Shown one piece after another: positions 79 through 52,566 of a stretch of DNA of 64,000 nt. Source of the DNA: a virus. The stretch lies in the IMG/VR virus record IMGVR_UViG_3300045988_140118; one strand, written 5' to 3'. The stretch's first letter is position 1; each line of letters begins with the position of its first letter. Made by a program: the position numbers and the translations under genes. The notes under the pieces are model-generated. The model made no database searches and was not told the DNA's origin. It saw only the letters and a program-made list of their open reading frames with translations.

Positions 79-107
79 TTATCTAATAACTAATACACAT
101 TAAGATT

Positions 108-1398: not shown

Positions 1399-1399
1399 T

Positions 1400-4066: not shown

Positions 4067-4070
4067 TTTT

Positions 4071-6117: not shown

Positions 6118-6125
6118 CAATAGCT

Positions 6126-6383
6126 ATGAATAGATGTTATGAACGTAAATTTGCCCTAAAAAATTTGGGAAAGAGAGTTATGCTTATAAAAAATGGTAGG
6201 CTAGTATCGGGTATGGTAGTTGGATATTATGCTTCGAAAAAAGATACCGGTATACTAGTTTCGTTTACAAATCGGTCAGGATGGACCAGCGATTTTCAAG
6301 ATCCCGGTTATAAGGTTTTGGTACATTCACCGTTGAACGTTTCTTTTTGGCGTACATGTACTAGCCAATGCGCATGCTATTGA
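6126..6383 (+). CDS. hypothetical protein
   Basis: Packed co-directional ORF. Confidence 0.45.
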   Translation: MNRCYERKFALKNLGKRVMLIKNGRLVSGMVVGYYASKKDTGILVSFTNRSGWTSDFQDPGYKVLVHSPLNVSFWRTCTSQCACY

Positions 6384-6500
6384 ACATGCGGAGAAAATAA
6401 CCGTTTTGGAACATTTCAAATAAAACGTTATATTTACAACGTATTTTTAAAACACATAGTGTTAAACCGGACAATGCAATGTCCATAAAATTTAAAGATT

Positions 6501-7178
6501 ATGCCTTATACAGAAAGTACCAGACGTAGAAGACGCTCTGAAGAGGATGACGCACCTAGAAGAAAATCGTCAGCAAAACCCCAAGGATGGGGAGCAGTTG
6601 CTCGTAGACAAGCTGAAATAGCAGAACGTGAGGAAGAAATTCGTAACATTCCTAGAGATTTTTTCTTGAAAGATGGAGAATCTGCGATCATCCAATTTTT
6701 GCAAGATGAACCTTACTGTTATGACGCTCACAGCGTGAAAGACAAACGAGGTAATTTCCAGTATGTACCTTGCCAGTTGAACACCGGAAAACATTGCTTG
6801 ATGTGTCAAGACGGTATCAAACTTACTTGGAGAGCCGCTTTTAAACTTATCGACTATCGAGGTAGTTGGGATAAGGCTAAAGGTAAATTCAAGTACGATA
6901 CTCCACAGGAAAAAATTTGGAAAGTAGGTACTACTATTGCCCAACAGCTAAAATCTATTTGTGACAAACGTGGAAAGCAACTTTCCGAGATGGTTTTTGA
7001 AGTTTCTCGTTCCGGAGCAAATAAAGATGCTACTTACAATTTCGAACAAGCTTTGGATGATGACGATGTACGTATGAAACCGAAGCGGTGGATCGAAAAA
7101 ATGGCTACTGCCGAAGAACTTTGTCAACCTCCTACAGTTGAGGATATTGATAAAGCCGGTTATTCTTCTGTAGAGTAA
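6501..7178 (+). CDS. putative ssDNA-binding protein (gp32-like, zinc motif)
   Basis: Basic N-terminus, C-x8-HCxxC motif, acidic tail DDDDV, and position between primase and polymerase. Confidence 0.4.
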   Translation: MPYTESTRRRRRSEEDDAPRRKSSAKPQGWGAVARRQAEIAEREEEIRNIPRDFFLKDGESAIIQFLQDEPYCYDAHSVKDKRGNFQYVPCQLNTGKHCLMCQDGIKLTWRAAFKLIDYRGSWDKAKGKFKYDTPQEKIWKVGTTIAQQLKSICDKRGKQLSEMVFEVSRSGANKDATYNFEQALDDDDVRMKPKRWIEKMATAEELCQPPTVEDIDKAGYSSVE

Positions 7179-7267
7179 CAGTTGTGATTGCTTTTATTTT
7201 GTTTAGTTAGAACTATAAGGTGTCGTGAGACAGAAATGTTTCCGATACCTTATTTTATCTCAGAACC

Positions 7268-9127
7268 ATGAAGAAATTAGATGTGTACGGAGGATATGTA
7301 GGACTCCTTGAAAATATCAAAGAACTTAGAGATTATTTACGTTCGATTGATGAAGGGGAAATACTTGTAAATGACTGGGAAACTACCGGATTGGGATATA
7401 ACGCCACGCCTCTTGGATTATCGTTATGTGCCAGAGATAAACCTCCTGTTTTTGCACCCACAGATTTTTATTTCTCTAAGGGAATACCTATGGAAGAAAT
7501 TGCTTCTGTCTGTAATGAAGAGTATCCTAAATTTAAATTAGTGGCCCATAATGCGAAATATGATAGCATGATTAATAAGATGAATGGTATCGAGGATGCC
7601 AATTGTAACTGGTATGCGGATACTTTAATCATGATTCATTTGGTAGATCCTAATATGGATATGAACCTTGAAAAAAGAGTTGCTCTCGATTTTGGGTATG
7701 AAAAACAGAAGTTTGAAAAACTTTGTGGTAAACGGTGGAACCGGATTAATTGGGCTACTGATGGGGACGATCTGTTACCTATTCTTGCTGCCTATGCTGG
7801 GGAGGATACTTATTGGGAACTTAAAATGTACGAGAAGTATCGTCCTAAAATGACTCCTAGATTATGGAAAATGCACTGTTCGATGGAGATGCCCTTAGTA
7901 AAAATTTTGCGGGACGCTAAAATTAGGGGCGTTTTGATTGATGTTCCCTTATTGAAAGATATGGGAGTCGAAGTAGATAAACGTTTATCTCAGTATATCC
8001 AAGAAATATATGATGAATGTGGCTGCGTCTTTAATATTAATTCTACTCCACAGAAACAACGTGTATTTTTTGATAAGATGAAACTTCCGGTTATTTCTAC
8101 CACAAAAAGCGGAGGTTACAGTACGGATGCAAAAACCGCCAGTGCTTGGGCAGATGCCGGGTATAAAATAGGTGAACTTCTTGTGAAGTATTCAGAACTC
8201 CAAAAATTAAATTCGGGGTATATTAGGTCTATCCCTAACCTAGTGGATGAACATAATGTACTTCGTGGAGACTTGAATAGCTGTGGTACGGTAACAAGCA
8301 GGTTTAGTAGTTCTAATCCTAACTTGCAGAATCAGCCGAATAATCATGATTTTCCCATACGACAAGCATTTATCCCAAGACCCGGATATTGCTTTCTGAA
8401 TTACGACTATTCTCAATTGGAACTTCGTGTGATGGCTCACATGGCTCCTGACCCGGTATTTAAGAAGATCTTTTTATCCGGTGGTGATCCACATGCGGAA
8501 ACTGCAAAACTATTAAATACAACCAGAAAAAATGCGAAGACTTGTAACTTCGGAGTTCTTTATGGTTTAGGTATTCCTAATTTTGCAAAACGCTTTAAAA
8601 CAACCAATGCAGAAGCCCAAAAAATCATAGACCGTTACCATGATACATATTATGGATATGCTAAATGGAAAGTTCGTACCGAGGAATACGTACAAAAGAA
8701 CGGTTATGTAGAAACTTTATTCGGTTTTCGCAGACTTCTTCCTGAAGCAATGAAAAGTCCTTTTAAGAGAACCGCTTACTCGTTTTATGAAGCTTTACGA
8801 CAAGCATGTAATACGGTTATTCAGGGTACTGGTGCGGGAATCGTAAAACTTGCTACTATAGCCGCAGTTAAAAAAATGCAGGAAGCCGGATTAGACTGCC
8901 ATTTCTTATTGCAAGTTCATGATGAACTTCTTTTTGAGGTACGTATTGATCAGGCTCTTGAAGCGGAACGTATTTTGATTGATGCGATGGAGAATACAAC
9001 GAAACTGGATGTACCTTTAACAGTAGACGGTAAGATTCTTGCTAACTGGGGAGAGATGAAAGATGACGATATACCGAGCTTACCTTATAGGTTTGACTAT
9101 TCATTATACGCACCTTTATTAAGTTAG
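7268..9127 (+). CDS. family A DNA polymerase with 3'-5' exonuclease domain
   Basis: Exonuclease motifs DWETTGL and HNAKYD; polymerase motifs DYSQLELRVMAH, RKNAKTCNFGVLYG and QVHDELLFE. Confidence 0.95.
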   Translation: MKKLDVYGGYVGLLENIKELRDYLRSIDEGEILVNDWETTGLGYNATPLGLSLCARDKPPVFAPTDFYFSKGIPMEEIASVCNEEYPKFKLVAHNAKYDSMINKMNGIEDANCNWYADTLIMIHLVDPNMDMNLEKRVALDFGYEKQKFEKLCGKRWNRINWATDGDDLLPILAAYAGEDTYWELKMYEKYRPKMTPRLWKMHCSMEMPLVKILRDAKIRGVLIDVPLLKDMGVEVDKRLSQYIQEIYDECGCVFNINSTPQKQRVFFDKMKLPVISTTKSGGYSTDAKTASAWADAGYKIGELLVKYSELQKLNSGYIRSIPNLVDEHNVLRGDLNSCGTVTSRFSSSNPNLQNQPNNHDFPIRQAFIPRPGYCFLNYDYSQLELRVMAHMAPDPVFKKIFLSGGDPHAETAKLLNTTRKNAKTCNFGVLYGLGIPNFAKRFKTTNAEAQKIIDRYHDTYYGYAKWKVRTEEYVQKNGYVETLFGFRRLLPEAMKSPFKRTAYSFYEALRQACNTVIQGTGAGIVKLATIAAVKKMQEAGLDCHFLLQVHDELLFEVRIDQALEAERILIDAMENTTKLDVPLTVDGKILANWGEMKDDDIPSLPYRFDYSLYAPLLS

Positions 9128-9133
9128 ATAATC

Positions 9134-9247
9134 ATGCTAAAACTGGAACTTTTTTGTCTTGCTGCCGGAGTTATCGTAGGATTTTTAGGAGGGTTATATT
9201 ATGCCTCCCATACAGATGACGATGACCAAGACTCTAAACACTATTAA
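9134..9247 (+). CDS. small membrane peptide (37 aa)
   Basis: MLKLELFCLAAGVIVGFLGGLYYA transmembrane segment with an acidic tail; fills the pol-recA gap. Confidence 0.3.
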   Translation: MLKLELFCLAAGVIVGFLGGLYYASHTDDDDQDSKHY

Positions 9248-9252
9248 AAACA

Positions 9253-10422
9253 ATGGCTAAGAAAGATAGTTTATCACCTTTGAATGAAGCCCTAGAAAAA
9301 TTTAATAAAACTATGGGCGATGGAATTATACATACTGCCTCTGTATTACCTCCTTGTAGAAAGGTACTTTCTACTATTCCGGCTTACAACTATGTAAGTG
9401 ATGGAGGTTATCCGGTAGGTAGAGTTATTGAACATCTTGGAGAAAATGGTTCGTTGAAGAGTTATTGCGCTTATGATGCAATAGCTCAATTTCAGCATTA
9501 TGATTGGGGAAACCATGAACAAAATGCCTTTACTAGTTTTGAATATACCGGAAGCGGTGCTACTAGAGAACTGAAGAAGTACACCCTTCGTAGAGGATAT
9601 AAACCTAAGAATGACCCTATAGTAAAAAGGGTTGCTTTGGTTGATATTGAAGCTACCTACACCCCTGACTGGGGAGAAAATTTTGGCATTGATAACGAGG
9701 GACTTATTTTGATTCGTCCTATGTTATTGTCTCAGTGTGTAGATATTGTTCAGATGCTTCTTGCTGATGAAAGCATTTCCCTTGTGGTTATTGACAGCTT
9801 ATCGGCCATTGGTACGGATGATGAAGTTGATAAGTCTATGGAAGATAATCAAATGGCATCCGGTGCTAAATTCTGGAATAAAGCATTTCGAAAATTACAG
9901 GCTGCTATGTTGGCTAATCCTACTGCGGAATCCTCTTTACTGGTTATCAATTCAGCTTATCAAAAAGTAGGCATTGTTTACGGAGACCCTGAAAATATTA
10001 GGAACGGTGAACAATTAAAACGGACCAAATCTCTTTCCATTAAGTTTAAGGCTCTTAAAGAGATCTCTTCTAAATTAGAAGGGGGAGATGCGGTTGTTGG
10101 TAAGAACATTACTATAAAATGCGTGAAGAGTAAAGTAGGTCGTCCTAGTAGAGATGCTACTTTCTTTTATTCTTATATAGATCATGGATACAATAAAGCT
10201 TGCTCTACCGATGTTGCCGGACAGTTGGTAGATCTTGGTATCCGGTTTAACCTGATAAAAAGGGCTGGTGCCTGGATTTCTTACAAGGATATGAAAGTAC
10301 AAGGCATTGATGCCTTTTCAGAAGAACTTGTCGTACAGAAGCGGTTAAAAGAACTCGAAAAGGAAGTTTATGCTGCCATGTCAAATCCTAAAGATTGTGA
10401 TGAAGATGATTCAGAAGACTAA
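9253..10422 (+). CDS. RecA-like recombinase with non-canonical P-loop
   Basis: GRVIEHLGENGSLKS in place of GPESSGKTT; Walker B LVVIDSLSAI; FWNKAFRKLQ resembles the RecA L1 region. Confidence 0.75.
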   Translation: MAKKDSLSPLNEALEKFNKTMGDGIIHTASVLPPCRKVLSTIPAYNYVSDGGYPVGRVIEHLGENGSLKSYCAYDAIAQFQHYDWGNHEQNAFTSFEYTGSGATRELKKYTLRRGYKPKNDPIVKRVALVDIEATYTPDWGENFGIDNEGLILIRPMLLSQCVDIVQMLLADESISLVVIDSLSAIGTDDEVDKSMEDNQMASGAKFWNKAFRKLQAAMLANPTAESSLLVINSAYQKVGIVYGDPENIRNGEQLKRTKSLSIKFKALKEISSKLEGGDAVVGKNITIKCVKSKVGRPSRDATFFYSYIDHGYNKACSTDVAGQLVDLGIRFNLIKRAGAWISYKDMKVQGIDAFSEELVVQKRLKELEKEVYAAMSNPKDCDEDDSED

Positions 10423-10440
10423 TTTTAAAAATATGTAATT

Positions 10441-10719
10441 ATGAAAATGCAGATTGATGAAGCCGACTTAAAAAAGCTTCTTTTAATGGCTTTGTGTAGT
10501 AAACCTTTTGTTAAGTTAGATCCGAAAGATCTTTTTCTTGGTAATTTGTGGAGGGTTGCTCCTAAAGTTGCTGAGAAAATATTACGCCAGAATGGTTATG
10601 AGGTAGTTGAGTCTAAAGGTAGAAAAGTAATTAAACAGAAAGGTGGGGAGGAACACGAAGAAGATTCCTCTTCCGAAGAACCTGTTATTTCTCGTAAAAG
10701 AAGAACTCGTAAAAAGTAA
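10441..10719 (+). CDS. hypothetical protein with acidic then basic C-terminus
   Basis: Packed ORF followed by a terminator. Confidence 0.5.
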   Translation: MKMQIDEADLKKLLLMALCSKPFVKLDPKDLFLGNLWRVAPKVAEKILRQNGYEVVESKGRKVIKQKGGEEHEEDSSSEEPVISRKRRTRKK

Positions 10720-10731
10720 CTTAAAGAAAAT

Positions 10732-10760
10732 CCCGGTAGTATCCTTATTACCGGGTTTTA
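10732..10760 (+). terminator. rho-independent terminator-like hairpin
   Basis: CCCGGTA (10732-38) pairs with TACCGGG (10749-55), followed by TTTT. Confidence 0.6.
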
Positions 10761-10768
10761 TTCGTATT

Positions 10769-11179
10769 ATGATAGACGCTTACTTATTTTCGTTTTTGGT
10801 AAAGGATACTTTACCCAGAACTTTTGTTGTGAATGAATTTGGGGTTGTCACAACTTCGTTAGTTTTACAGGTTCCGGATAAGAAAATTGCTGAAAATCTG
10901 TACTTCAAACTTTGTAGAATTAATGGGTTATGGAAATGTTCTTCTACATTCTATGGATGTAGTTGCGGAGCTAGTTCCCCAATTACCGAGAAATATAACC
11001 CTTCTTTTCCGGACCTTACTTCGGCAGTGGTACATTATTGGGAAAGGTTTTTGGAATACGCTGAGAGAAGTACCGTTAAAGAAAAAACGGTTTCCGCTAT
11101 GAAAAAATACATGTCTTTTTGGGTATCTTTGTCGGAGGAAGAGAAATTAAAAACGCTATCTAATGAAACGAAAATATAA
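10769..11179 (+). CDS. hypothetical protein
   Basis: First ATG after the terminator, inside track ORF 10643-11179. Confidence 0.5.
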   Translation: MIDAYLFSFLVKDTLPRTFVVNEFGVVTTSLVLQVPDKKIAENLYFKLCRINGLWKCSSTFYGCSCGASSPITEKYNPSFPDLTSAVVHYWERFLEYAERSTVKEKTVSAMKKYMSFWVSLSEEEKLKTLSNETKI

Positions 11180-11516
11180 ATATCTAGAGGCACTTGATTC
11201 TCCTAAAACTACACGAGCACGTTCTTATAAACAAGAAAGTAGAATCGCCAAAGAACTGAAAGGAAAAACCACCATTAACAGTGGTGCTACTTTCGGGCAA
11301 AATGATGTATATACAGATTATTGTGAAGTGGAAGCCAAAACTACTACACATAAATCATACAGCCTTACGCTTGCTGATTGGTATAAACTAAAGCGCAAAT
11401 GTAACATTGCTAAAATGCCTGTAATGGTGGTAGATTTCGAAGGAACTCCAACTAGTCTTGCCGTCCTTTCATTTGAGGATTTAAAATTCCTTATATCGCA
11501 AGCTAATAAGGAGTAG
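11163..11516 (+). CDS. small PD-(D/E)XK nuclease, Holliday-junction-resolvase-like
   Basis: E...SGA...D...EVEAK pattern; paralogous to 17224-17640. Confidence 0.5.
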   Translation: MKRKYKYLEALDSPKTTRARSYKQESRIAKELKGKTTINSGATFGQNDVYTDYCEVEAKTTTHKSYSLTLADWYKLKRKCNIAKMPVMVVDFEGTPTSLAVLSFEDLKFLISQANKE

Positions 11517-11547
11517 TTTTGATCTTTTCTAAAAACATCTTATTTTT

Positions 11548-11757
11548 ATGGTAAAATTTTACAGATACATAGACGGTTATCGTATTAAGAAACAACAACA
11601 CGGCTTGTTTAAAGTAATTGAGTACTCGTCTTTAGTAGACGGTACTTCTTTACGAAAAAGAACGCTGTTTAAAGATCTGACTATTTCTGACGCTGAAGAT
11701 CATGTGTACAAGTTAGAAACTAAAAATGCGAATCGTTTGAAAAGAAACATAACATAA
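11548..11757 (+). CDS. hypothetical protein
   Basis: Packed co-directional ORF. Confidence 0.5.
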   Translation: MVKFYRYIDGYRIKKQQHGLFKVIEYSSLVDGTSLRKRTLFKDLTISDAEDHVYKLETKNANRLKRNIT

Positions 11758-11778
11758 TTTTTAAAAAGAATCCCACAA

Positions 11779-12996
11779 ATGAAGTATTATTTTTTAAAGT
11801 CTGTTTATGAAACAGGATCGACCACTTCGGTAAGGTTAAGAGCATTGCCAGGTCAAGCTTTCGAGACAGGTGCCCGTATTGACCCTTCTATTAATGTCGC
11901 AGGAAAACCGTTTATACGTACAGCCTATCCTATAGGTACTGTCTTTGGTTGTTCCGATCTGGTCTCTTTTGGCACTTATTATAAAACGGAGTCGTATTTT
12001 CCTATAAATATTTCGGAGAGTGATTTGAAAGATAAATATCATAAAGCTCCTGAAGATATGCTACGTGCGTATGAATCGTTTATAGGACTTGCTCTTTCCG
12101 AAACAGACGGTGATTCTGAGGAAGCTGAGGAACCGCCAGTTAAGAATACCTATCTTTCCAAAATGAAGAAGAATCCTAATTTTAAGGTTCCCACTGTTCT
12201 TTCTGATGGATTCTACGTACAAGAAGATATTTGGTATTTATTGTTACGTAATATCAGATCACAAGTAAATACTTTAATGGTAGGTCCTACAGGAACGGGA
12301 AAGACCGAATTGGTAATGCTTGCTTGCAAGAAGCTTGGAATTTCATGCTCTGTTTACGATATGGGAGCCATGTATGATCCGGTAGCTGGTTTGTTAGGTG
12401 TTCACCGTCTGCATGAAGGGGGAGTTTCTGTTTTTGACTACGCTAAATTTACGAAAGATATTTCAAAACCTGGAGTAGTTCTTTTGGACGAACTTTCCCG
12501 TGCTCCGGCTACTACTAATAATATTTTGTTTCCTTGTCTAGACTCTAGACGATCTCTCCCGGTTGAAATTGCCGGAGGAAATGATTTGAGGGAAATACCC
12601 GTTTCTCCGGAGTGTTGTTTTATAGCTACTGCAAATATAGGGTCTGAATATACCGGTACTATGGATATTGACCGTGCGTTGCAAAACAGATTTTTCCCTC
12701 TGGAACTCTCTTATTTGCCGCCTGATGAAGAGATCAATGTTTTGAAAAAACGCTGCTTTATTGGGCGTGTTAATGCGGGACATATTGTAGCGGTTGCAAA
12801 TAATATACGTGACTTATATATAAAACAGGAGATTAGTTGTTCCATCTCTACAAGAGAAACATTAATGGCTGCTGAGTTGGTAGCCGATGGTTGGTCTGTT
12901 TTAAGATCTTTGGAACTTTCATTCTTGCCTCTGTTTGAAGGTTCAGGAAGTGATGGGGAAAGGGGTATCGTGAAAAAAATCATTTCAAGTAGATAG
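11779..12996 (+). CDS. MoxR/CobS-like AAA+ ATPase
   Basis: Walker A GPTGTGKTE, Walker B VVLLDELSRA, and ATAN...DRALQNRF. Confidence 0.85.
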   Translation: MKYYFLKSVYETGSTTSVRLRALPGQAFETGARIDPSINVAGKPFIRTAYPIGTVFGCSDLVSFGTYYKTESYFPINISESDLKDKYHKAPEDMLRAYESFIGLALSETDGDSEEAEEPPVKNTYLSKMKKNPNFKVPTVLSDGFYVQEDIWYLLLRNIRSQVNTLMVGPTGTGKTELVMLACKKLGISCSVYDMGAMYDPVAGLLGVHRLHEGGVSVFDYAKFTKDISKPGVVLLDELSRAPATTNNILFPCLDSRRSLPVEIAGGNDLREIPVSPECCFIATANIGSEYTGTMDIDRALQNRFFPLELSYLPPDEEINVLKKRCFIGRVNAGHIVAVANNIRDLYIKQEISCSISTRETLMAAELVADGWSVLRSLELSFLPLFEGSGSDGERGIVKKIISSR

Positions 12997-12999
12997 TTT

Positions 13000-13167
13000 A
13001 TGGTTAAGAGTAAGCAGTTTCCGGTTTCTAAGCCTAGGTATGGTAAACTTTTATATGATGGTAAGGTTATACTGTCAAATAGGGCTTTTCCGATATTGCA
13101 GGCAGAAAAACGAAGACTGCTTGCTACCGGATATTATAAAAAGGAATTACTAAAAATAACATATTGA
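13000..13167 (+). CDS. small hypothetical protein (55 aa)
   Basis: ATG ORF that exactly fills the gap between the AAA+ and vWA genes; below the ORF-track cutoff. Confidence 0.35.
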   Translation: MVKSKQFPVSKPRYGKLLYDGKVILSNRAFPILQAEKRRLLATGYYKKELLKITY

Positions 13168-13168
13168 T

Positions 13169-15055
13169 ATGGAAAGTGTTGATGAACGTGTCTCTAAAGA
13201 AATAGATTCTTTATTAGGAGATTGGTTAGATCGTGGATCTACTTATGTAAAGACACGAAAGTCCGGAAGAATTGGGTGGGAATCTTCTTTAGAAGAAGGG
13301 TCTTCTTATTCTTCGTATTATTTGGAAGCTCCTTCTACCAGAGAGTTAATCAGAAGAGCATACCCACTGGCAAGGGATATGCTTGTTGCAATGAATCCTC
13401 CTTGTAAGTTTAACGTGCAGATAAGTCCAGGAAAGATTGGCGGTTGTACTGATGGAAAAACTGTTTTTGTAAAAACCGGAGTTTTTGATGACTCTGAGTT
13501 AGAGCCTTCCGAAATGCTAGATATATTTCTAGGTGTTGTGGTGCATGAAGGATGCCATCTGTTATATACAGATATGTCGTTACTTTCTGATACCCGGTTA
13601 GACTCTCTGAGTAAGAACATATTTAATATCTTGGAAGACGAACGTATAGAGACTATCTGTGGTGATCGCAAACCAGGATTTTCTCGTTTTATTGAAAAAG
13701 TGAAATACTACCTTTTCGATAAACTTTTTATTGAGGATACTGCGTTAACTCTGGAAGAAAAACCACTATTTGAACGTTTTATGATCTCTTTTCTTCAGGT
13801 TGTTAGGTATCCCAGGTATGTGAACAAAGATGCCGTGGGAGAGTTTCTTTACCAGTTTTCCGAAATAAAAGATTTACTTCTTCCTTTTCCTACTGACGGA
13901 AAAACTACTTTGGAATGTTCTTTAATGATTGCAGATATTATCCGTGACCTGTATATCGAAGAAGAAAAGAAACGTGACGAGGAAAAGTCAAAGGGAGGAA
14001 AAGAAGGAGATGGGGAAGGATCTTCTGATGGTGATTCCAGTGTCGATACTGAAGCTACTAGGACTTCCCGTGCTTTTAAACGTCTTGAAGAGGATGCTAA
14101 GAAATTCAGCAAAACGTTAGATAAGTTATCTTCCTCTCCTAGTGAAGAAGGTTTGGGCAAAGAAGATACCTCCAAGGAAGTGTTGAAAGATGGAGGTTTA
14201 CTTGGTGAGTTATGTGAGGGTAGAATTGAAGTAGGTGATCATGATTCTTATTTTAAGAAAGCCCCTGCTGCTAAGGGACCGTATCTATCCTCTTTAGGCA
14301 AAGTGTCGAGGTATATTCCTTCTGTTTCTAGAGTTATTAAGGGTCATTGTAAGGAGTACCGGCTTATACATAGATCTATGCGTAGTGGTATTCTTGACAC
14401 TAATAAGCTTGCCGAAGCCATTCAGGGTGTTCCGACTGTTTATTTGCGGGAGGGACAGGTATTTACTGATAAAGTAGCTGTGTGTGTTCTTATTGATGAA
14501 TCAGGATCTATGTGTGGTGGAAGTATATCCGGAGGAAGCAAAATGGACGCTGCTAAGGATGCTGCTGTATTATTGAATGAAGCCGTTTCCTCGTTACCAG
14601 CCATAGAATTATTTATTTACGGTCATTCAGGTGATATGCGTTATTCGGGTGCTACTGAATTAAATGTGTATAAAGAACCTGGATATTCTCCTAAATATGC
14701 TTTAGGCTCTGCTGTTGCTAGAAGTCAGAACAGGGACGGTATCGCTATTCTTGAAACAGCAAAAAGAGTTAGAAAGTTTACGAAGAATCCTGTCCTCTTT
14801 TTTGTAATTTCTGATGGCGCTCCTGCTGCTGATTCTTACGATGGCATGCAGGCTATACAACATACTAAAGATGCGGTATTACAAGTGGAGAAAATGGACT
14901 TTTCTGTTGTACAAGTTTGCATAGACTCGTGCTATGATCCTAAACTGATGTTTAAACATTATGTCATACTAACAGATATTGCGAGACTTTCTATTGATTT
15001 AGGAAAGGTGATAAAAAACGCAATAGTAAAGAAAGCAAAAGTACATACCTTATGA
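13169..15055 (+). CDS. vWA-domain protein with N-terminal HExxH metallopeptidase-like domain (CobT/DUF2201-like)
   Basis: HEGCH motif, acidic Ser/Gly linker, and MIDAS motif VLIDESGSM in the C-terminal vWA domain. Confidence 0.8.
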   Translation: MESVDERVSKEIDSLLGDWLDRGSTYVKTRKSGRIGWESSLEEGSSYSSYYLEAPSTRELIRRAYPLARDMLVAMNPPCKFNVQISPGKIGGCTDGKTVFVKTGVFDDSELEPSEMLDIFLGVVVHEGCHLLYTDMSLLSDTRLDSLSKNIFNILEDERIETICGDRKPGFSRFIEKVKYYLFDKLFIEDTALTLEEKPLFERFMISFLQVVRYPRYVNKDAVGEFLYQFSEIKDLLLPFPTDGKTTLECSLMIADIIRDLYIEEEKKRDEEKSKGGKEGDGEGSSDGDSSVDTEATRTSRAFKRLEEDAKKFSKTLDKLSSSPSEEGLGKEDTSKEVLKDGGLLGELCEGRIEVGDHDSYFKKAPAAKGPYLSSLGKVSRYIPSVSRVIKGHCKEYRLIHRSMRSGILDTNKLAEAIQGVPTVYLREGQVFTDKVAVCVLIDESGSMCGGSISGGSKMDAAKDAAVLLNEAVSSLPAIELFIYGHSGDMRYSGATELNVYKEPGYSPKYALGSAVARSQNRDGIAILETAKRVRKFTKNPVLFFVISDGAPAADSYDGMQAIQHTKDAVLQVEKMDFSVVQVCIDSCYDPKLMFKHYVILTDIARLSIDLGKVIKNAIVKKAKVHTL

Positions 15056-17704: not shown

Positions 17705-17989
17705 ATGGAAGTAGTTAACGAGACACAGAAAGTACTTCGGTGTTCAACAGCCACAGATGCTAATAAACTTGCTGAAAGTATCTATTCTTCTTGTAAGAAT
17801 GATGCTAATGTTAAGTTAAGCATCCGTGTTATCGGAGCAGGCGCTTTGAATCAAGCAGTGAAAGCCTCTATCCTAAGCAATAAATTCTTTTCTAAAAAGG
17901 GATTGCGTGTAGGTTTAGTTCCTTCATTTCAAGATTCAGAGAACAACGTAACAGTGATAGAACTAAAAGTATTTCTTTTAAAGAATTAA
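17705..17989 (+). CDS. SpoVS-like protein
   Basis: IGAGALNQAVKA matches the conserved SpoVS core as I recall it. ATG 17705 preferred over GTG 17696. Confidence 0.8.
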   Translation: MEVVNETQKVLRCSTATDANKLAESIYSSCKNDANVKLSIRVIGAGALNQAVKASILSNKFFSKKGLRVGLVPSFQDSENNVTVIELKVFLLKN

Positions 17990-29946: not shown

Positions 29947-30366
29947 ATGGATAGTATAAGAAAACTTATTAGGATTTATACGCCTTTTATCGTTACCCTT
30001 TGTAATTTGACATACGGTGTATTATTTCTGAAGGAAACATTAACCGATAACGAAGCATTTACTTTGAATGTTATTTCCGGTTGTTCTTTCAGCTTTGTGA
30101 TATACGTTTGGGCTGCAAGTAAGCACATGTGTATATGGTACAAACTGAATCTACTGAGCATGGTTTTGATGTTGGTGGATACAGTCTTATATTATGTAAC
30201 TGATGTAATAGACCGAGTGTTATACAGCTACATTTATGTGTTATTAGCGACAGCAGGATTGATTTGCTTTCTAGCATTTTGGTTTACGTTCGTACTTTTT
30301 AGAAACGTGGTGTGTAATCGCAAACATTCAAAAGTACAAGAAGAACGCCAAGACCTAGTTCCTTGA
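29947..30366 (+). CDS. multi-pass membrane protein
   Basis: First ATG after the terminator; 4 hydrophobic helices. Confidence 0.5.
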   Translation: MDSIRKLIRIYTPFIVTLCNLTYGVLFLKETLTDNEAFTLNVISGCSFSFVIYVWAASKHMCIWYKLNLLSMVLMLVDTVLYYVTDVIDRVLYSYIYVLLATAGLICFLAFWFTFVLFRNVVCNRKHSKVQEERQDLVP

Positions 30367-30607
30367 TTGCTTGTAACGAGAATTTCTTTCCCTTCGTATG
30401 CGCAATGTATGCCGGGATTATTTCTGAGTTCTTGGATAATCCGTTATTAGCACGAATGTGTCTTGTATGGTTGTTTACTGTGAAACGGGAGATATGCAGC
30501 TTGTCAGCGATTTCCTTTTCTGAGAAACCTCTTGATATGTAATCGGCTACCTCCAATTCTCTTGTACTAAAGATTGGTGTCTTTGCGTCATTGTATATCT
30601 TATCCAT
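30299..30607 (-). CDS. LuxR/GerE-type HTH transcriptional regulator
   Basis: FSTRELEVADYISRGFSEKEIADKLHISRFTVNNHTRHI. The only convincing minus-strand gene. Confidence 0.75.
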   Translation of the reverse strand: MDKIYNDAKTPIFSTRELEVADYISRGFSEKEIADKLHISRFTVNNHTRHIRANNGLSKNSEIIPAYIAHTKGKKFSLQAIKELGLGVLLVLLNVCDYTPRF

Positions 30608-34337: not shown

Positions 34338-34630
34338 TGGGAAGATTTATACCTAAAATGCTAGTTCGTACTTCGTATGGTACAGGACCCTATAAGATTA
34401 TAGACGTGACAGAAAATTGTGAGTGTCCGTCTTTTAGTGATTCTATAACGTTACTAGATAAAGCACCCCATTCAAGGAAACATGTGCACATTCGTTGCCG
34501 TGACCTTGTAAATAGATACAGTAACTACTATCTGAACGGATATGATGAAAACGGGTTATCTGTATGGGATGAAAATAACCGTTTGATCGTATGTGCCGAA
34601 GAAACATTACTACTAACTTTATTTTTATAA
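34325..34630 (+). CDS. hypothetical protein
   Basis: Packed ORF. Confidence 0.5.
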   Translation: MQNVMGRFIPKMLVRTSYGTGPYKIIDVTENCECPSFSDSITLLDKAPHSRKHVHIRCRDLVNRYSNYYLNGYDENGLSVWDENNRLIVCAEETLLLTLFL

Positions 34631-35112
34631 TGACACAATTAGAACTTGCTACGAGAATCAAAGAAGTGACTCCCTCTTTACAGAGGAGCGCTTACTATTT
34701 TACCGGGAATATGGATGATGCCTCTGACTTATTTCAGGATACTATGGTTGCGGTGACTGCCAACATAGATAAATTTTCTCCTGAGACTAATTTCCATGCG
34801 TGGTGTCAAGTAGTTCTGAAGAATCTGTTTTATGATAAGTGGAGACAGAAAAATTCCCGTCCTCCCACTGTACCAACAAGTGAACAGTATTGCGGAAGTG
34901 TTGTAGATCCGTCTCCAATGGACTTTACCCATATTTGGAATACTATTGACCATTTACCAAAGCCGTGGTCTACTGTGATGAAGCTGCGTGTGTCCGGTTA
35001 TGGGTACCAAGAGATCAGTGATAAATTAGGTATTCCGTTGGGAACTGTAAAAAGTAGAATCAGTCTTTCTAGAAAACGTCTGAGTAAAGATTTGGCTGAA
35101 TATTTGTTTTAA
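34630..35112 (+). CDS. ECF-type sigma-70 family sigma factor
   Basis: Region 2 DLFQDTMVAV...FHAWCQVVLKNLFYDKWR; region 4 YQEISDKLGIPLGTVKSRISLSRKRL. Confidence 0.85.
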   Translation: MTQLELATRIKEVTPSLQRSAYYFTGNMDDASDLFQDTMVAVTANIDKFSPETNFHAWCQVVLKNLFYDKWRQKNSRPPTVPTSEQYCGSVVDPSPMDFTHIWNTIDHLPKPWSTVMKLRVSGYGYQEISDKLGIPLGTVKSRISLSRKRLSKDLAEYLF

Positions 35113-40941: not shown

Positions 40942-41097
40942 AATCATTTTTAAGTCATAATTGATTAGCTATAAAATTCATTCGATCCCGGACGTACAAA
41001 AAATACTTGTGAAAGTAGAGTCCAGTAAAATTAATTCGATTTGCATATTATGTAGGAAAGGATTGCCTGTGAAGGTAGTCCTTTTATTTTTATAAGT

Positions 41098-41137
41098 ACC
41101 CTCGACTCTCCTAAAAAAGAGTTTGAGGGTATTTTTG
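41098..41137 (+). terminator. rho-independent terminator
   Basis: ACCCTCGACTCT pairs with AGAGTTTGAGGGT (about 11 bp, one bulge), followed by ATTTTTG. Confidence 0.7.
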
Positions 41138-41145
41138 TGCCCAAG
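41130..41145 (+). promoter_or_regulatory. TAnnTTTG box with conserved extension TATTTTTGTGCCCAAG
   Basis: Near-identical to the boxes at 50130 and 49382; faces the ORF-free region. Confidence 0.35.
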
Positions 41146-41827
41146 TTAGTTATAACTATATGTACCTAAAAAATCGCATTTTAAAACTACCTATTTTTCC
41201 CTATTTATTTTCCTTTCTACCTAGTTTCTTATAACTACCTGATAAATTCCTTTTCCAGTAATTAAAAAACGCTCCCATGAAGCGGTATGTCTTACTATAT
41301 GCAATAAGGAGAATCCCCTATATAAAGACGGTTCTGCAAACAAGTCCCCCGGAAAGTTTGCCAAAAAGCTAAGGATTTTTGCGGATAAATGTTTTAATAC
41401 TATTATAATAACATTAATACTATAAGTATGTGTAATGGGAGTGATGGGTAAGCAAGAAAGATAGAAATCTCCTATTACTAGATTACTGGCTAGATAGCAA
41501 GAAAACAGGGCTACACATAGCTGTAGGGCAGTGAGCGTTCGTGCAATTATAGAAATTAGCTGTGTATTTACGCAGGTATTTACGCTTATTTAGTTTTAAT
41601 TGGCTGGTTGGTTACTTACTTTTTTAGCTGTTTTTCTTGTTTAGAACCCTGTTTTTACCCTTCTAATTTGAGAAAAGTTAGGGAAGTTTACAAAAACAGC
41701 CTATTTTCTAATTTATGCCATCACTGAGTATCAGATAGTTAGCTCAAAAATTTCCGGGGGTTATATCTTTTTGCCCAATTCATAAAAATCATTACACAAA
41801 AACGAGCGATAACAATAATTAGAAGCT

Positions 41828-41899
41828 AATTAGCGTAATTACGTAGTAAATTAGCCGTGTAACTAATTAAATTACGCATGCAGAATTAAAATTAGCGTA
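41828..41899 (+). repeat. iteron-like array, 4 x AATTA(G/C)(C/G)(G/C)N at 20-21 bp spacing
   Basis: AATTAGCGTA at 41828, AATTAGCCGT at 41849, AATTACGCAT at 41870, AATTAGCGTA at 41890. Confidence 0.7.
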
Positions 41900-41979
41900 G
41901 TTTTATTTTAGTTATTCTTTCTACTTTCTTATATAACTAACTTAGCGATTAAAAATAAACTGGAAATTACGTGCGGAAA

Positions 41980-42131
41980 TTAATTTCTACTTTAATTCTT
42001 ATCTTATACTCCTATTATATACTAGAAACTAAATTAATTTGCGGCGAATATTTTAATTTCTAGTTCTAATTTTATCTATGTCTTATGATATAGGTATACA
42101 TAGAATAAAATAGCGTGCGAAATTAAATCTA
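41980..42131 (+). repeat. degenerate ~70-73-bp-period repeats (GCG-rich core + TTAATTTCTA)
   Basis: TTAATTTCTA at 41980 and 42053, TTAAATCTA at 42123, each preceded by a GCGG/GCGTGCG core. Confidence 0.6.
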
Positions 42132-42484
42132 CTTTGCTAAGCGTAGCGATTCTTTCTAATAGAAATTAAATAAGCCCAATTAAAAACGGCAAATAAACTA
42201 ATTACTTTTAGTAAACCATATACTAAGTAGAGATACTTACTATTACCTACTAAGTAACCGATGGATTTATTCAAAGAAACATCGAAGGAAAGATAACTTT
42301 AAATTTTTTGCGGCAATTTCTTATTCCTTATTCCCAGAAAGATCTACCCGTAGATACATAGAGTGATTGGACGTGAGCTGACTGAGCTGAACCAAGAGAG
42401 GGGTACCCTTAAATGGACTTAGCAGGGCGGTTAGGTTCGGGTAGTACGCTTAGGTCACAGAGTGGAAAAGACGACCTGTATTTT

Positions 42485-42570
42485 TGTGACTGCATGTGTG
42501 ATAGACAGTGTGTGGTGTGTAGTGTGTGTCTGAGAAATGTAGTGTGGTGGTGTGTGACTGCGTGTGTGAT
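42485..42570 (+). repeat. TG-rich tract bounded by an 18-nt direct repeat
   Basis: TGTGACTGCATGTGTGAT (42485-42502) and TGTGACTGCGTGTGTGAT (42553-42570) match at 17/18; (TG)n-like sequence between them. Confidence 0.8.
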
Positions 42571-42695
42571 CGAACGAAAAAGGACGCTACACGGTACGAC
42601 TATCTAATGTGTATACCTATACAGTTACTTTGCATGTGATAACTGTTAATTGATCTAAAAATAACAATGCCTTTTGAATAAAACTTTCTTTTCAG

Positions 42696-42726
42696 TTTGT
42701 TATCTAACATAAAATTACTATCTTTG
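42696..42726 (+). promoter_or_regulatory. Bacteroidota-type promoter, TTTG-N19-TATCTTTG
   Basis: Exact consensus match; 42 nt upstream of ATG 42769. Confidence 0.6.
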
Positions 42727-42768
42727 TGTATAAAAGTTAATCACCTAACAACATTAAAAGACAAGGTT

Positions 42769-43046: not shown

Positions 43047-43346
43047 ATGAAAACAGTTATTTCAAAATTAGACAAGAAGACATATTATCTGGCAGTTGCT
43101 ACTAACTGCGAGTACAGTGAGTTTATTGAAGGAGAAAGATACCAAGTGAGAAGCGCAACGAAAGAAGATTGCCCGGACTTTGAAGATTACTGTGTAGTAA
43201 ATGGTACTTTCTGGGAAACACTTCCTGAGATAGACTTTCTTCGTATAAGCGGAAGACCCATGATCAACCGATACAATGGCACTTACTTTCTTCACAGACT
43301 GGTATTGAAGAGTGATTGCAAAAAGTATCTGTCTTATCTTAACTAA
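43047..43346 (+). CDS. hypothetical protein
   Basis: Packed ORF. Confidence 0.5.
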   Translation: MKTVISKLDKKTYYLAVATNCEYSEFIEGERYQVRSATKEDCPDFEDYCVVNGTFWETLPEIDFLRISGRPMINRYNGTYFLHRLVLKSDCKKYLSYLN

Positions 43347-43367
43347 TAATGAATTTGATATAAGAAA

Positions 43368-43595
43368 ATGGGAACTTCCAAGAAACAAGCTAATATTTTT
43401 GAAAAGGTGGCTACTTGCCAGAGTCCAACAGGAACTACCTACGGATATATTTATACCAAGAACGGATGGTTTGGTTATTACATGTGTGGTTACAAATATC
43501 CGGAGAAAAAAGGTACCCTGGAAGAAGTTGAAAAATATGTCCGTGAAGAATGGGATTTGATTATAAAGAGAAGTGCGAAATTTAAGAATATGTAA
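43368..43595 (+). CDS. hypothetical protein
   Basis: Preferred over the overlapping ORF 43312-43560 because of spacing and composition. Confidence 0.45.
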   Translation: MGTSKKQANIFEKVATCQSPTGTTYGYIYTKNGWFGYYMCGYKYPEKKGTLEEVEKYVREEWDLIIKRSAKFKNM

Positions 43596-43632
43596 AACCG
43601 GTAGCCGAAAGCTGCCACAACACCCAAAAATT

Positions 43633-46468: not shown

Positions 46469-47887
46469 ATGGAATCGAAAAAATTAATTGCCTGCCTGAA
46501 AGGTTGCAGAACCCGTTACAGTAAAAATGCAGATCCTAAGATGGAGTCCAAAGTAGTAACTTCTTTATTAAAGGACAGTGACCCTTCTTTCCTGCAAATG
46601 TTGAAAGAAAAAAGTTCCGACCTATATCACTACGTAAATACAGTTTTGAGCGTATCCGACCTTAAAACGCCTAAATTGACGAGATCTCCTGTGGTACTTC
46701 CTTCTGAAAATACGGAATGTCTCGCACACAGTACAAAAGGAGTGGTCTATGAAATTGACACCATCAAGAAAACCTGTAAACGGGTACTCTCCGATCTGTC
46801 ACAGTTAGCCGATACAGAAATCGAGATGGAGGAAATGCCGATGACGGTTTACCAAAGATACCTGAAGGATAAATTTTTCGGTGAGACTGTAGTCATTAAA
46901 AAAGGAAAACTCCTGTTCAGAGGATACCGGGTTTCCTGCACAAAGGAAAACGGTTTTATGATTGAGGATACCATGAATAAATATAAAGTGGTAGATACAA
47001 CATTCGAGGGCATCCCTACTCCGGCAGAATTGGGAGAATTTTTCGTCCGTCCTCGTGTAGAGCATACACCGGAAGATTTACATGCTGCTGTTGAAAGAGG
47101 CAAACAGCTAGCTTCCGAAAAAACAAAGACGGTCAGTATTGAAGTGGAAGAACCGGAAGAAGTAGACTTCGAAACACTCCGGTTAAAAGTGCTCGGAAAG
47201 ATTAACGCTATCCGTGAAGGAAAGGTTTCAAACTTTGACCCGGTGGATTTTCCGAAGATGATACCGTTTCGCAGATGGAAACGTTCGGTATCTATCCATA
47301 TTAATAAATGGAAGAACAAAAAGCTCCGGTATAAAACTTTATTAGCCGCCATTGAGAAAGTAACTCGTGAGGAGACTTTCGTGGTAGAGGAAAAAAATCA
47401 CCGGAGTTCTTTTGTAGGAACTATCCTTCCCGAATTTAAAACAGTAGGACGGTTGATCGGTAACAAACTGGAGGTAGACGGTAAGTTGGTGGACGCTGTT
47501 CCTTTCTTGCAGGCTCACTTACTCCATTATGAACCGAAAGCCATGCAACAACTAATGCGATTTGCCCGACACGAGATTGATGCGGTAACTTTGCTACAGA
47601 ATCCTTATCACGATGACTGGAAGATTGAGTACAACAGCAAACTGTTACCCAATACCAAAGAGGTAGCCGATATTCTCTCCGCCTTACATGAAAGTACAGG
47701 ACTTTGTGTACCACAAGATGTTTTATATGAAGCAGACCTGAAAATTGGAGATAAAATACTTATATTTGTCGATGGCTCTTGGAAACGTAAAACAATTACT
47801 GAGCTTGAAAACGGTATTTGTATCAATAAGGGAGTCGGGCTAATGAAATATGATAAGTGGATAAAATTAGACGATGAAAAGAAGTGA
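46469..47887 (+). CDS. hypothetical 472-aa protein
   Basis: Long ORF; no motif recognised. Confidence 0.6.
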   Translation: MESKKLIACLKGCRTRYSKNADPKMESKVVTSLLKDSDPSFLQMLKEKSSDLYHYVNTVLSVSDLKTPKLTRSPVVLPSENTECLAHSTKGVVYEIDTIKKTCKRVLSDLSQLADTEIEMEEMPMTVYQRYLKDKFFGETVVIKKGKLLFRGYRVSCTKENGFMIEDTMNKYKVVDTTFEGIPTPAELGEFFVRPRVEHTPEDLHAAVERGKQLASEKTKTVSIEVEEPEEVDFETLRLKVLGKINAIREGKVSNFDPVDFPKMIPFRRWKRSVSIHINKWKNKKLRYKTLLAAIEKVTREETFVVEEKNHRSSFVGTILPEFKTVGRLIGNKLEVDGKLVDAVPFLQAHLLHYEPKAMQQLMRFARHEIDAVTLLQNPYHDDWKIEYNSKLLPNTKEVADILSALHESTGLCVPQDVLYEADLKIGDKILIFVDGSWKRKTITELENGICINKGVGLMKYDKWIKLDDEKK

Positions 47888-50913: not shown

Positions 50914-52566
50914 ATGCCAAAACTAAGGAAGAAAACTCCTGATGAAGAAGGGTATGTATTTCCCGCTACTGGTAAGAGTATAGATGATATACATACTGAA
51001 GACATTGCCGGAAAATCTATCTCTTTTGATGCCCACGAGATTACAGGTAAGATTATCGAGTTCGGGAAAGTCCTTACAGGAATCTCTTTGTACAAGTATC
51101 AAGAAGACATAGCTTATGGAATTATATATTCCGTCATTACTTTTTCCGGAGATGTAAAGACTGTGCTTCTTTCCAGACAGTCCGGTAAGTCTGAGGTAAT
51201 GGCATTTGTAATTGATACACTTACCGTTCTAATGCCGGCACTTGCAAATATTATCCCTGAGTTCGAACAATTCCAGACCGGATTTCGAATAGGACTGTTT
51301 GCTCCACAAAGTGATCAGGTAGAAACTACTTATTCCAGAGCACTTGCCAGAATTAATTCCGCTAATGCGGAAATGGTTTTAGATGACCCTGATATTGGTG
51401 TTTCTTTGGAAAGTGCCGTTCGTTTGCAATTAAGCAACGGTTCTTTTCTTGCCGGACAAACTGCCAGTAAACAATCTAAGATCGAGTCTAAAACTTATGA
51501 CCTAGTAATTGTTGAAGAGGCTCAGGACGTTGATGACTTTATTGTCAGCAAGTCCATAGAACCTATGCTTTCTTCTACTGCCGGAACTCTTATTAAAGTA
51601 GGTACTACTGGTATGACTAAGAATCACTTTTACTACGAGATTCAACATAACCGAAACAGTGACCGAAAACTAAAAGATCCCAGAGTACGGAATCATTTTG
51701 AGTATGACTATAAAAAGATTATTCAAGACCGTAAAAAGCAATATGATTTAGACCACAAACGTTTCCACCTTAATTACGAGGCGGATGTTTTGCGTAAAAA
51801 AGCTCGTTGGGGAGAAGACTCTCAGGCATTTAAACTTGCTTATGCGTTGATATGGGACTTGGAAAGCGGTATGCTTATTACCGATAAAGAGTATAATAAA
51901 CTTCTTAACCGTAAATTAGGCTATCAAGATCCTACCGAAAGAGACTTGGTAGTTGCTGGTCTGGATATTGCTAAAAGTCCTGCCAGCACTGTCTTGACTA
52001 TCGGAAAAGTTATCCCAAACGAAGATCCTTTTGAAAGAAAGAAAAAACAAATTCTTGCGTGGGTTGACCTGAAAGGACTTGACTATGAAGCTCAACACCG
52101 TGTTATCATGGATTGTATTGTCGATTTCAATATTTCTATTATCTTTGCGGATTATACAGGTGTCGGTAAGCCAGTAGTAGACCGTCTATCATTTGCTTGC
52201 GGAGAATATGTATCGGTTGTTCCGTACACATTTACTTCTCAGAGTAAATCGGATATGTGGTATAACTTCATTAACGAGATTCAGACGCAAAGTTTGATTA
52301 TCCCGGCTAATAAAACAGTTCGTGAATCTGAGGAATATAAATGCTTCGAGGAACAGATTAAAAACTGCCAAAAATATTATAACGGCTCTTACTTAGTCTG
52401 TGAAAAGTCGGAGGGATTTTTTGATGACTATGTAGATAGTACAGCTCTTATGTGTTTGGCGGGTAATGACGAACCGGAGATTGAAGACGAGATGGAGGTA
52501 ACTGACAATCCGTTGTACTCGAATATCTCAGATACAATTAATGCACTTAGAAGATACTCTTTTTAA
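50914..52566 (+). CDS. terL: terminase large subunit
   Basis: Walker A-like LSRQSGKSE and Walker B DLVIVEEAQ; 550 aa, upstream of the portal. Confidence 0.85.
   Translation: MPKLRKKTPDEEGYVFPATGKSIDDIHTEDIAGKSISFDAHEITGKIIEFGKVLTGISLYKYQEDIAYGIIYSVITFSGDVKTVLLSRQSGKSEVMAFVIDTLTVLMPALANIIPEFEQFQTGFRIGLFAPQSDQVETTYSRALARINSANAEMVLDDPDIGVSLESAVRLQLSNGSFLAGQTASKQSKIESKTYDLVIVEEAQDVDDFIVSKSIEPMLSSTAGTLIKVGTTGMTKNHFYYEIQHNRNSDRKLKDPRVRNHFEYDYKKIIQDRKKQYDLDHKRFHLNYEADVLRKKARWGEDSQAFKLAYALIWDLESGMLITDKEYNKLLNRKLGYQDPTERDLVVAGLDIAKSPASTVLTIGKVIPNEDPFERKKKQILAWVDLKGLDYEAQHRVIMDCIVDFNISIIFADYTGVGKPVVDRLSFACGEYVSVVPYTFTSQSKSDMWYNFINEIQTQSLIIPANKTVRESEEYKCFEEQIKNCQKYYNGSYLVCEKSEGFFDDYVDSTALMCLAGNDEPEIEDEMEVTDNPLYSNISDTINALRRYSF

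Follow-up and report, generated by a model that had tools for sequence, protein, structure and literature searches.

A conserved, helically phased array of TAATTA boxes in the long non-coding gap of a gut Bacteroides phage

The lambda replication origin (ori-lambda) contains four inverted-repeat iterons bound by O-protein dimers, with an AT-rich region adjacent to them, and is activated by transcription. Origins of the lambda type are usually found within the initiator gene or next to it. The iteron origins of plasmids (R6K, RK2, pPS10, P1 oriR) use direct repeats of 17-22 bp at ~22-bp spacing, and lactococcal phage origins of the c2, sk1 and P335 types have been mapped to repeat-rich non-coding DNA, a cloned origin interfering with phage replication. 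Arrays of short sites also serve other purposes: in P1 pac and lambda cosB, short elements that bind terminase flank the cut site or adjoin it, and in the MetJ met-boxes, ParR/parC of plasmid R1 and omega of pSM19035, dimers occupy tandem short operators at about one-turn spacing. Here we describe a cluster of TAATTA boxes in a 64,000-nucleotide stretch of viral DNA (IMG/VR record IMGVR_UViG_3300045988_140118), which we refer to as the window. A previous, sequence-only reading of this DNA had noted four iteron-like boxes two helical turns apart and proposed that they bind a phage protein, as at a replication origin or a partition site.

The window is part of the ~92-kb genome of a gut Bacteroides phage, apparently a non-integrating one, with nearly all genes on the + strand. 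The nearest named relative is Bacteroides phage BS162P1 (OP172706.1), a sewage isolate; the unannotated faecal contig MT835482.1 is also related, and there are 92.5-kb contigs that encode an identical Dps-like protein. Apart from the isolate BS162P1 itself, our literature search on BS162P1 found no published study of the family. The boxes are located in the only long gap of the window that is free of open reading frames (ORFs).

The TAATTA boxes and their helical phasing

The sequence-only reading had listed AATTAGCGTA at 41828 and 41890, AATTAGCCGT at 41849, AATTACGCAT at 41870, an extra AATTACGTAG at 41837, and related copies further downstream, AATTACGTGC at 41965 and GCGTGCGAAATTA at 42113. 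All of these strings are where it placed them, the four principal boxes are indeed 21, 21 and 20 bp apart, and the AT-rich background that it described is borne out by G+C contents of 29% in the cluster and 26% in 41900-42340. Its definition of a 10-bp box was not exact: what is conserved is a palindrome of 8 bp flanked by G/C-rich positions, [CG]TAATTA[CG], the symmetry of which had been overlooked, as had two further sites, AATTAG at 41817 and CTAATTAA at 41863. The two full palindromes CTAATTAG and GTAATTAC overlap with an offset of 9 bp, and half-sites come after them; in the cluster as a whole, AATTAG is found at 41817, 41849 and 41890 and AATTAC at 41870 (Table 1). Family-wide there are 26 non-redundant full sites (these two and 24 others), in which both positions flanking the octamer are enriched for G/C and the remainder is AT-rich. 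Palindromic sites of this kind fit a dimeric helix-turn-helix (HTH) protein. A literature search on the octamers returned nothing relevant.

The density of boxes at the cluster is far above chance. AATTA[CG][CG] occurs 29 times on the + strand of the 64 kb, with five of these occurrences inside 72 bp at the cluster, and four of the six copies of AATTAGC in the window lie in the gap. When both strands are counted, there are 117 copies of AATTAS in 64 kb; their density peaks at nine per 100 bp, a value reached solely at the cluster. We compared this with 2000 order-2 Markov simulations on the gap's own composition. The simulated maximum averaged 2.3 AATTAS per 100 bp, and a count of nine was reached in 0 of 2000 runs. 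Because no composition-matched simulation attained the observed value, AT-richness does not account for the cluster, which is real.

The boxes are also phased. Their centres lie at 0, 11, 20, 32, 48, 53 and 73 bp, all whole helical turns apart except the one at 48 bp, which is the 41863 box; one face of the helix thus holds six of the seven. All forward half-sites, and not just the four originally picked, fall on multiples of ~10.4 bp (-11, 0, 9, 21, 42 and 62 bp). The phasing of the seven centres at 10.5 bp gives R = 0.68 (P ~0.008, or 0.02 with the period left free over 10-11 bp). Six in-phase sites are contained in 75 bp, which agrees with the repeated sites of an iteron-type origin. Across seven gaps, the distances between pairs of centres peak at 9-11, 20-21, 30-32, 40-42, 53 and 62 bp, and the mean of cos(2πd/10.5) is 0.24, compared with -0.02 +/- 0.06 for jittered centres (P ~0.001, from clades that are not fully independent).

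Conservation across the phage family

We gathered relatives of the window through a conserved protein of 472 amino acids (46469-47887; alignment A1), which yielded 19 IMG/VR loci in addition to BS162P1 and MT835482.1. In every relative, a homologous gap without ORFs is found 4-5 kb upstream of the gene for this protein, and [CG]TAATTA[CG] is almost confined to that gap. The same boxes are present in four diverged clades whose gaps otherwise cannot be aligned. In genome-wide counts, the gap accounts for 8 of the 11 full boxes in BS162P1, five of six in MT835482.1 and three of six in the window. An unbiased k-mer comparison of gap and flanks returned CTAATTA, GTAATTA and AATTACG as the top 7-mers in three clades, one example being observed 7 times against an expectation of 0.05.

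The MT835482 clade also has the 19-bp double box GCTAATTAGCGTAATTACG, despite unalignable surroundings. It reads GCTAATTAG(C/T)GTAATTACG there and is followed by more boxes at +30 and +62, the boxes of the window being at +9, +21, +42 and +62; a site geometry of 0/+9/+62 is common to the two. A search of 2.9 million viral contigs (IMG/VR) gave 12 matches to the double box, nine of them in this phage family and the rest chance matches in AT-rich DNA. In 596 Gb of prokaryote genomes (GTDB) there were 71 matches, which is at or below chance.

For a footprint comparison we used a clade in which the Dps-like protein is 72-73% identical and the gap aligns with that of the window at ~71% DNA identity. 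Within the cluster, conservation reaches 93% over the 40 positions of the in-phase cores, against 69% over 39 spacer positions and 67% for the out-of-phase box. This last box, at 41863, reads CTACGTAA in the 71%-identical clade and is thus missing there; given that it is not conserved, it is probably no functional site. The footprint amounts to roughly one independent comparison, since its four comparison sequences lie close to each other. A second arm of boxes, upstream of the cluster, turns over between clades. Relatives have 3-5 boxes there as 21-22-bp tandem units, which are true tandem repeats (TTATTTTAATTAGAAACG-like) in BS162P1 and the L116 clade; apart from one conserved AAATTAGC box, the copies in the window are decayed.

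Given that the sites are palindromic, phased, conserved in motif and private to the gap, they very likely form a selected, phased array bound by a dimeric, sequence-specific phage DNA-binding protein. In this respect the earlier claim of protein-binding sites holds up: motif conservation in four clades, the footprint, the palindromic cores, the phasing and the adjacent DNA of low stability are the behaviour of selected sites. The array may serve as an origin, an operator or a packaging site, and we weigh these possibilities below.

The gap, its neighbours and candidate binding proteins

No other gap in the window is of comparable size, and 41095-42768 contains no credible ORF; the next gene starts at 42769. 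The layout of the gap is conserved in outline across clades. Along the + strand it consists of terminators and a -7 box (41130), the upstream arm of boxes, a conserved block (41672-41790), the box cluster, an invariant GCGTAGTTTTATTTTAGTTA, the AT-rich tract, a second conserved block (42403-42470), a -7 box at 42479 with a TG-rich tract, and a -7 box at 42719. The three -7 boxes are the only canonical Bacteroides ones in the gap. The block at 41672-41790 holds a palindrome, CTGAGTATCAG (41724-41734), of the form CTGAnTATCAG, with TGAnTATCAG seen in three clades. It also holds the promoter-like TATCTTTTTGCCCAA (41764-41778; repeat D9), which resembles the canonical -7 site at 41130. GCGTAGTTTTATTTTAGTTA contains TAGTTTTA (41896), which comes close to the Bacteroides -7 box TAnnTTTG and is a possible promoter element. 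In the AT-rich tract, which has three of the 11 window matches to the GCGG-type boxes, these boxes are islands of conservation (79-85% against 37-54%). Repeat units of ~72 bp in 41886-42180 align poorly (57% column identity), the GCGG cores alone being conserved.

The best-conserved element of the gap in all clades is CCCTTAAAYGG ... GGGTRGT ... TAGGT (window 42403-42470; L005 340-400; L020 4315-4375; L012 3535-3600), possibly another cis-site with a role in, for instance, packaging. We found no convincing RNA structure or covariation in this block, and no Rfam match. The predicted RNA fold of 42340-42500 is weak (-6 kcal/mol) and lends no covariation evidence because its best helix is invariant. 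Rfam searches of the entire gap (gathering threshold and E <= 1) returned nothing, and there are no tRNAs. A search of IMG/VR with GGTACCCTTAAATGGA found a known relative and otherwise chance coding matches only. A type IB topoisomerase gene lies a few genes past the gap in the BS162P1 clade (OP172706.1 1827-2591; L012, L016 and L017 ~6290-7025), and was not found in the window or in the MT-clade DNA examined. We had considered a link between this enzyme and the conserved CCCTT, and abandoned it because the gene is restricted to the BS162P1 clade.

The gap has several other features. A minus-strand hairpin resembling an intrinsic terminator is located at 41270-41284 (CGCTTCATGGGAGCG followed by T6), and a 14-nt inverted repeat, CCCCCGGAAAGTTT / AAAATTTCCGGGGG (41346-41359 / 41747-41760), encloses 387 bp; there may be a leftward transcript or small RNA here. 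In the 98%-identical relative G001 (L001), ~480 bp are inserted between the Dps-like gene and the terminators (window 41091), and 43050-43630 is replaced or divergent, which makes the borders of the gap look like hot spots of gene gain and loss. The gap of the MT clade (L010, MT835482.1) contains four small ORFs without counterpart in the window (603-851, 862-1125, 1561-1869 and 1866-2126). At least two of the four in L010 are clear paralogues, with FPLYA and YLDLF(A/T) motifs in common, and a TAATTA-box cluster precedes each pair.

Of the candidate binders named by the sequence-only reading, the HU-like, MerR-like and 1400-2173 proteins exist, but its assignment of a DnaA-C-like protein is weak (Pfam E = 0.007, under the curated cut-off). 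The MerR-like protein is kept in BS162P1, MT835482.1, G003 and G007, and has no significant match in the PDB. The 1400-2173 protein, which occupies the position of an initiator, is likewise conserved in all clades examined. The search for relatives of the phage found 136 clusters of this protein, at a 90% identity cut-off, and many contigs of ~90 kb. The AlphaFold2 (AF2) model of the 1400-2173 protein, with a predicted local distance difference test (pLDDT) score of 81, has two N-terminal helix/beta-hairpin units and a helical C-terminal half; a fold search of the PDB gave no significant match (best E = 0.5), and a PDB profile search was empty. The HU-like protein is present in BS162P1 and was not detected in MT835482.1.

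The boxes might also have been promoters for a phage extracytoplasmic function (ECF) sigma factor or a host sigma factor. We rejected this idea: they are confined to the gap and do not stand before dispersed operons, and TAnnTTTG is unmatched. The window does encode an ECF-type sigma factor, at 34591-35112 (Sigma70_r2 1e-12, r4_2 9e-11), with a weak homologue in BS162P1, which implies phage-specific promoters elsewhere in the genome. A SpoVS-like protein (17705-17989; Pfam SpoVS 9e-13), unusual for a phage of Bacteroidota, is kept in BS162P1 and MT835482.1. TerL matches in two pieces spanning ~2.7 kb in OP172706.1 (9334-12054) and MT835482.1 (11123-13837), compared with 1.65 kb in the window, which suggests an intein or intron-like insertion in the TerL of these two relatives.

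Table 1. Positions of the boxes, gap elements and relevant genes in the window.
Feature	Position	Strand	Remarks
TAATTA-box cluster	41816-41900		Enrichment, phasing, conservation
Cluster members	AATTAG 41817; CTAATTAG 41826-41833; GTAATTAC 41835-41842; AATTAGC 41849; AATTAC 41870; AATTAGCGTA 41890		All six in helical phase
CTAATTAA	41863-41870		Sole out-of-phase box
Isolated full box CTAATTAC	42198-42205		Within AT-rich tract
Long ORF-free gap	41095-42768		Only one in the window; between Dps-like gene with terminators and first gene of next module (ORF lists)
Canonical Bacteroides -7 box TATTTTTG	41130-41137	+	Directly after Dps terminators
Conserved AAATTAGC box	41553-41560	+	Upstream arm
Most conserved block between the two box arms	41672-41790		89% conserved in footprint; 83.6% identity to BS162P1
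GCGTAGTTTTATTTTAGTTA	41895-41914	+	Invariant in intermediate (71%-identical) clade
AT-rich tract	41900-42340		26% G+C; conserved GCGG-type boxes at 41965-41990, 42036-42062, 42110-42131, 42305-42322
Block CCCTTAAATGG ... GGGTAGTACGCTTAGGT	42403-42470	+	Invariant across clades
Replication module	100-15000		HU-like to UvsX-like genes listed below
HU/IHF-family protein	108-380	+	Candidate architectural cofactor; Pfam Bac_DNA_binding E = 3e-26
MerR-like HTH protein	816-1145	+	Candidate binder; Pfam MerR E = 0.0023, under cut-off
Initiator-position protein	1400-2173	+	Candidate origin binder; directly upstream of DnaC-like loader and DnaB
DnaC-like loader	2160-2789		Replication module
DnaB helicase	2786-4066		Replication module
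Primase	5182-6117		Replication module
PolA	7268-9127		Replication module
UvsX-like protein	9253-10422		Replication module
LuxR/GerE-type HTH protein	30299-30607	minus	
Dps-like gene	ends at 40941		
TerL	50914-52566		Portal gene at 52576

Replication origin, operator or packaging site

We favour the reading that the array is the part of a replication origin that binds the initiator or an accessory protein, and would put its probability at about 40%. The phage encodes a replication set consisting of the initiator-position protein, a DnaC-like loader, DnaB, primase, PolA and HU. An origin is favoured because the array is the only repeat array in the genome and adjoins the most meltable DNA, because the initiator, loader and helicase need a loading site, and because there is no repeat array in or near the replication module in three clades. 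DnaA boxes occur at chance level and form no cluster. The promoter-like conserved block immediately precedes the array, and the DNA of the window that melts most easily immediately follows it: no duplex in the 64 kb is less stable than the AT-rich tract starting at the cluster's 3' edge, which ranks first at the 60, 100, 200 and 400-bp scales. In BS162P1 and MT835482.1, too, the segments that bear boxes are among the least stable.

Each dimer would take an 8-bp palindrome [CG]TAATTA[CG] or a half-site and, since the sites sit whole helical turns apart, would share one face of the DNA with its neighbours. Dimers aligned in this way could build a higher-order complex that wraps the DNA. If the array is an origin, such a complex would open the AT-rich tract at 41900-42340, perhaps with help from the HU-like protein and from transcription that starts at the promoter-like 41764 site, and the DnaC-like loader would load the DnaB helicase at the opened tract.

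Several observations weigh against an origin. The window repeats only a core of 6-10 bp, not an iteron of 17-22 bp, and the gap is ~39 kb from the initiator-position gene, so that the adjacency seen in lambda-type origins is lacking; no fold relative could be recognised for the protein that this gene encodes. Nor is the gap the one minimum of duplex stability in the relatives, where it ranks second in BS162P1 and second to fourth in MT835482.1, and in the MT835482 clade two small genes follow the cluster in place of the AT-rich tract. In BS162P1 the cumulative GC skew, once detrended, is lowest at 42.4 kb, where the replication module starts, rather than in the gap, and it peaks at 12.8 kb. 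This minimum may be an origin signal or only the boundary between the structural and replication modules; because two modules meet at this point and the genome is transcribed in a single direction, it is weak and ambiguous as counter-evidence.

A bolder combination of these ideas is unlikely, in our judgement. It would have an abundant family of virulent gut Bacteroides phages of ~85-110 kb replicate from a distal, lambda-like but initiator-remote origin of phased TAATTA palindromes, bound by the MerR-like (816-1145) or the fold-orphan 1400-2173 protein. The same gap would also start packaging, through the invariant CCCTTAAAYGG block, so that its 1.7 kb would be a new type of organiser combining origin, packaging start and early promoter.

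The array could instead be an operator or roadblock for early transcription, which we regard as possible but doubtful. A dimeric, cooperative phage regulator would occupy the phased palindromes just downstream of the promoter-like 41764 site, overlapping the possible -7 box TAGTTTTA at 41896, and would thereby shut down, or set the timing of, transcription that enters the leader and the first genes beyond the gap. Palindromes of 8 bp with G/C flanks are typical for HTH dimers, the cluster lies between the conserved promoter-like block and the invariant GCGTAGTTTTATTTTAGTTA with near-consensus elements at 41764 and 41896, and several regulators are encoded (LuxR/GerE-type, ECF sigma factor, MerR-like). 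Two pairs of small paralogous ORFs in the MT835482 clade (L010 603-1125, 1561-2126) have box clusters 30-50 bp ahead of them. In the window, however, no gene starts within ~870 bp downstream, and none of the three canonical -7 boxes of the gap is in the cluster. The sites are many (at least seven, plus the upstream arm), yet no regulator gene is adjacent: the flanking genes are the Dps-like gene and small genes without family match, and the regulators are 7-41 kb away. A repressor system of the lysogeny type is not expected, because no integrase was found in BS162P1 and three relatives that are 99-100% complete (G002, G003 and G007).

That the boxes mark a packaging site of the pac or cos type seems improbable. 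The small terminase or an accessory protein would bind the two arms of boxes around 41672-41790, or bind near 42403-42470, and the first cut would be made there. Two arms of short palindromic boxes do surround a conserved core in all clades, and the identity of TerL between clades, at 72%, is in keeping with conserved cis-sites. Records of phages with related TerL proteins (Streptomyces BRock-like phages, Bacillus BCD7) place the terminase ~25 kb from the record start, from which defined ends are possible. Some contigs and records of relatives start in the gap (MT835482.1, L018 and the BS162P1 record junction), but the ends of the BS162P1 record are a 55-nt assembly overlap and not physical ends, and that of MT835482.1 is partial. 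The gap is crossed without a break by eleven contigs of 50-200 kb and by IMG/VR contigs of 88.7-109.5 kb, and the 109.5-kb contig has a single copy of it. The gap is ~9 kb upstream of TerL and not beside it, and no recognisable small terminase is adjacent; QueD and small genes without family assignment are directly upstream of TerL. Contig ends within the gap scatter (41197-equivalent, 41320 and 41333). The latter two belong to independent low-coverage metagenome contigs (ERZ1754981, ERZ1755619) that end 13 bp apart, and a third, from the 72%-identical clade, ends ~125-135 bp upstream; these are too few for a physical end.

The partition site suggested by the sequence-only reading has fared poorly. 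A centromere-like array in a plasmid-like carrier state, with an adaptor bound to short repeats at one-turn spacing, would have spacings like the observed 9-12 and 20-22 bp, which resemble centromeres of the ParR/parC or omega type. In BS162P1, G002, G003 and G007, however, searches for ParB_N (PF02195) and the ParA-type ATPase AAA_31 (PF13614) found neither, with control genomes giving matches and adaptors of the ribbon-helix-helix (RHH) type outside the search, and no plasmid in PLSDB resembles the region. We consider partition highly improbable. The boxes have scarcely any prospect of being functionless by-products of AT-rich, low-complexity DNA or of decayed tandem duplications. Such DNA does favour TAATTA-like words, short cores alone recur in the window, and the downstream ~72-bp units align poorly, but the simulations never reached the observed clustering, the motif recurs in four clades with otherwise unalignable gaps, the cores are conserved above the spacers, and the phasing is non-random.

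The finding overturns nothing. Relatives of this phage are common in human-gut metagenomes, and the conserved cis-element is a handle for mapping the family's origin, early control region or packaging start, for finding the cognate DNA-binding protein, and for building replicons or engineering tools for Bacteroides phages. With motif and geometry now defined, these functions are testable.

Among the known systems, ori-lambda is similar in having several palindromic, phased sites beside an easily melted AT-rich tract, with a promoter-like element upstream here. Like lambda, the phage encodes an initiator-position protein and a helicase loader, and relies on a DnaB-type helicase. Unlike ori-lambda, which lies inside the initiator gene and has repeats of ~18-19 bp, the array is ~39 kb from the replication module and has a core of 8 bp, and the 1400-2173 protein has no detectable sequence or fold relationship to solved initiators. 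The likeness to plasmid iteron origins lies in the same-orientation sites two turns (20-22 bp) apart, the adjacent AT-rich tract, and the tandem units of 21-22 bp that BS162P1 and the L116 clade carry in the upstream arm; the differences are palindromes and half-sites with variable spacers in place of long direct repeats, no recognised Rep-family initiator, and no DnaA boxes. With lactococcal phage origins the locus shares its setting in a virulent phage, in non-coding, AT-rich DNA full of repeats that overlaps promoters and is distant from the replication genes, but sequences and hosts are unrelated. As in P1 pac and lambda cosB, two arms of short palindromic hexamer or octamer elements surround a conserved central block, although the site described here is not beside the terminase genes and long contigs pass through it. 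The adjacent centres 9, 11 and 12 bp apart and the overlapping palindromes recall the MetJ, ParR and omega operators and imply that small dimers pack next to each other along one helical face; in contrast to those operators, the spacers are variable, the sites are not strictly contiguous, and no ribbon-helix-helix protein or partition genes were identified, in searches aimed at ParB_N and the ParA-type ATPase. Phased binding-site arrays are a known theme of phage control regions, of which this locus is a new, well-supported example in an unstudied and abundant family of gut Bacteroides phages.

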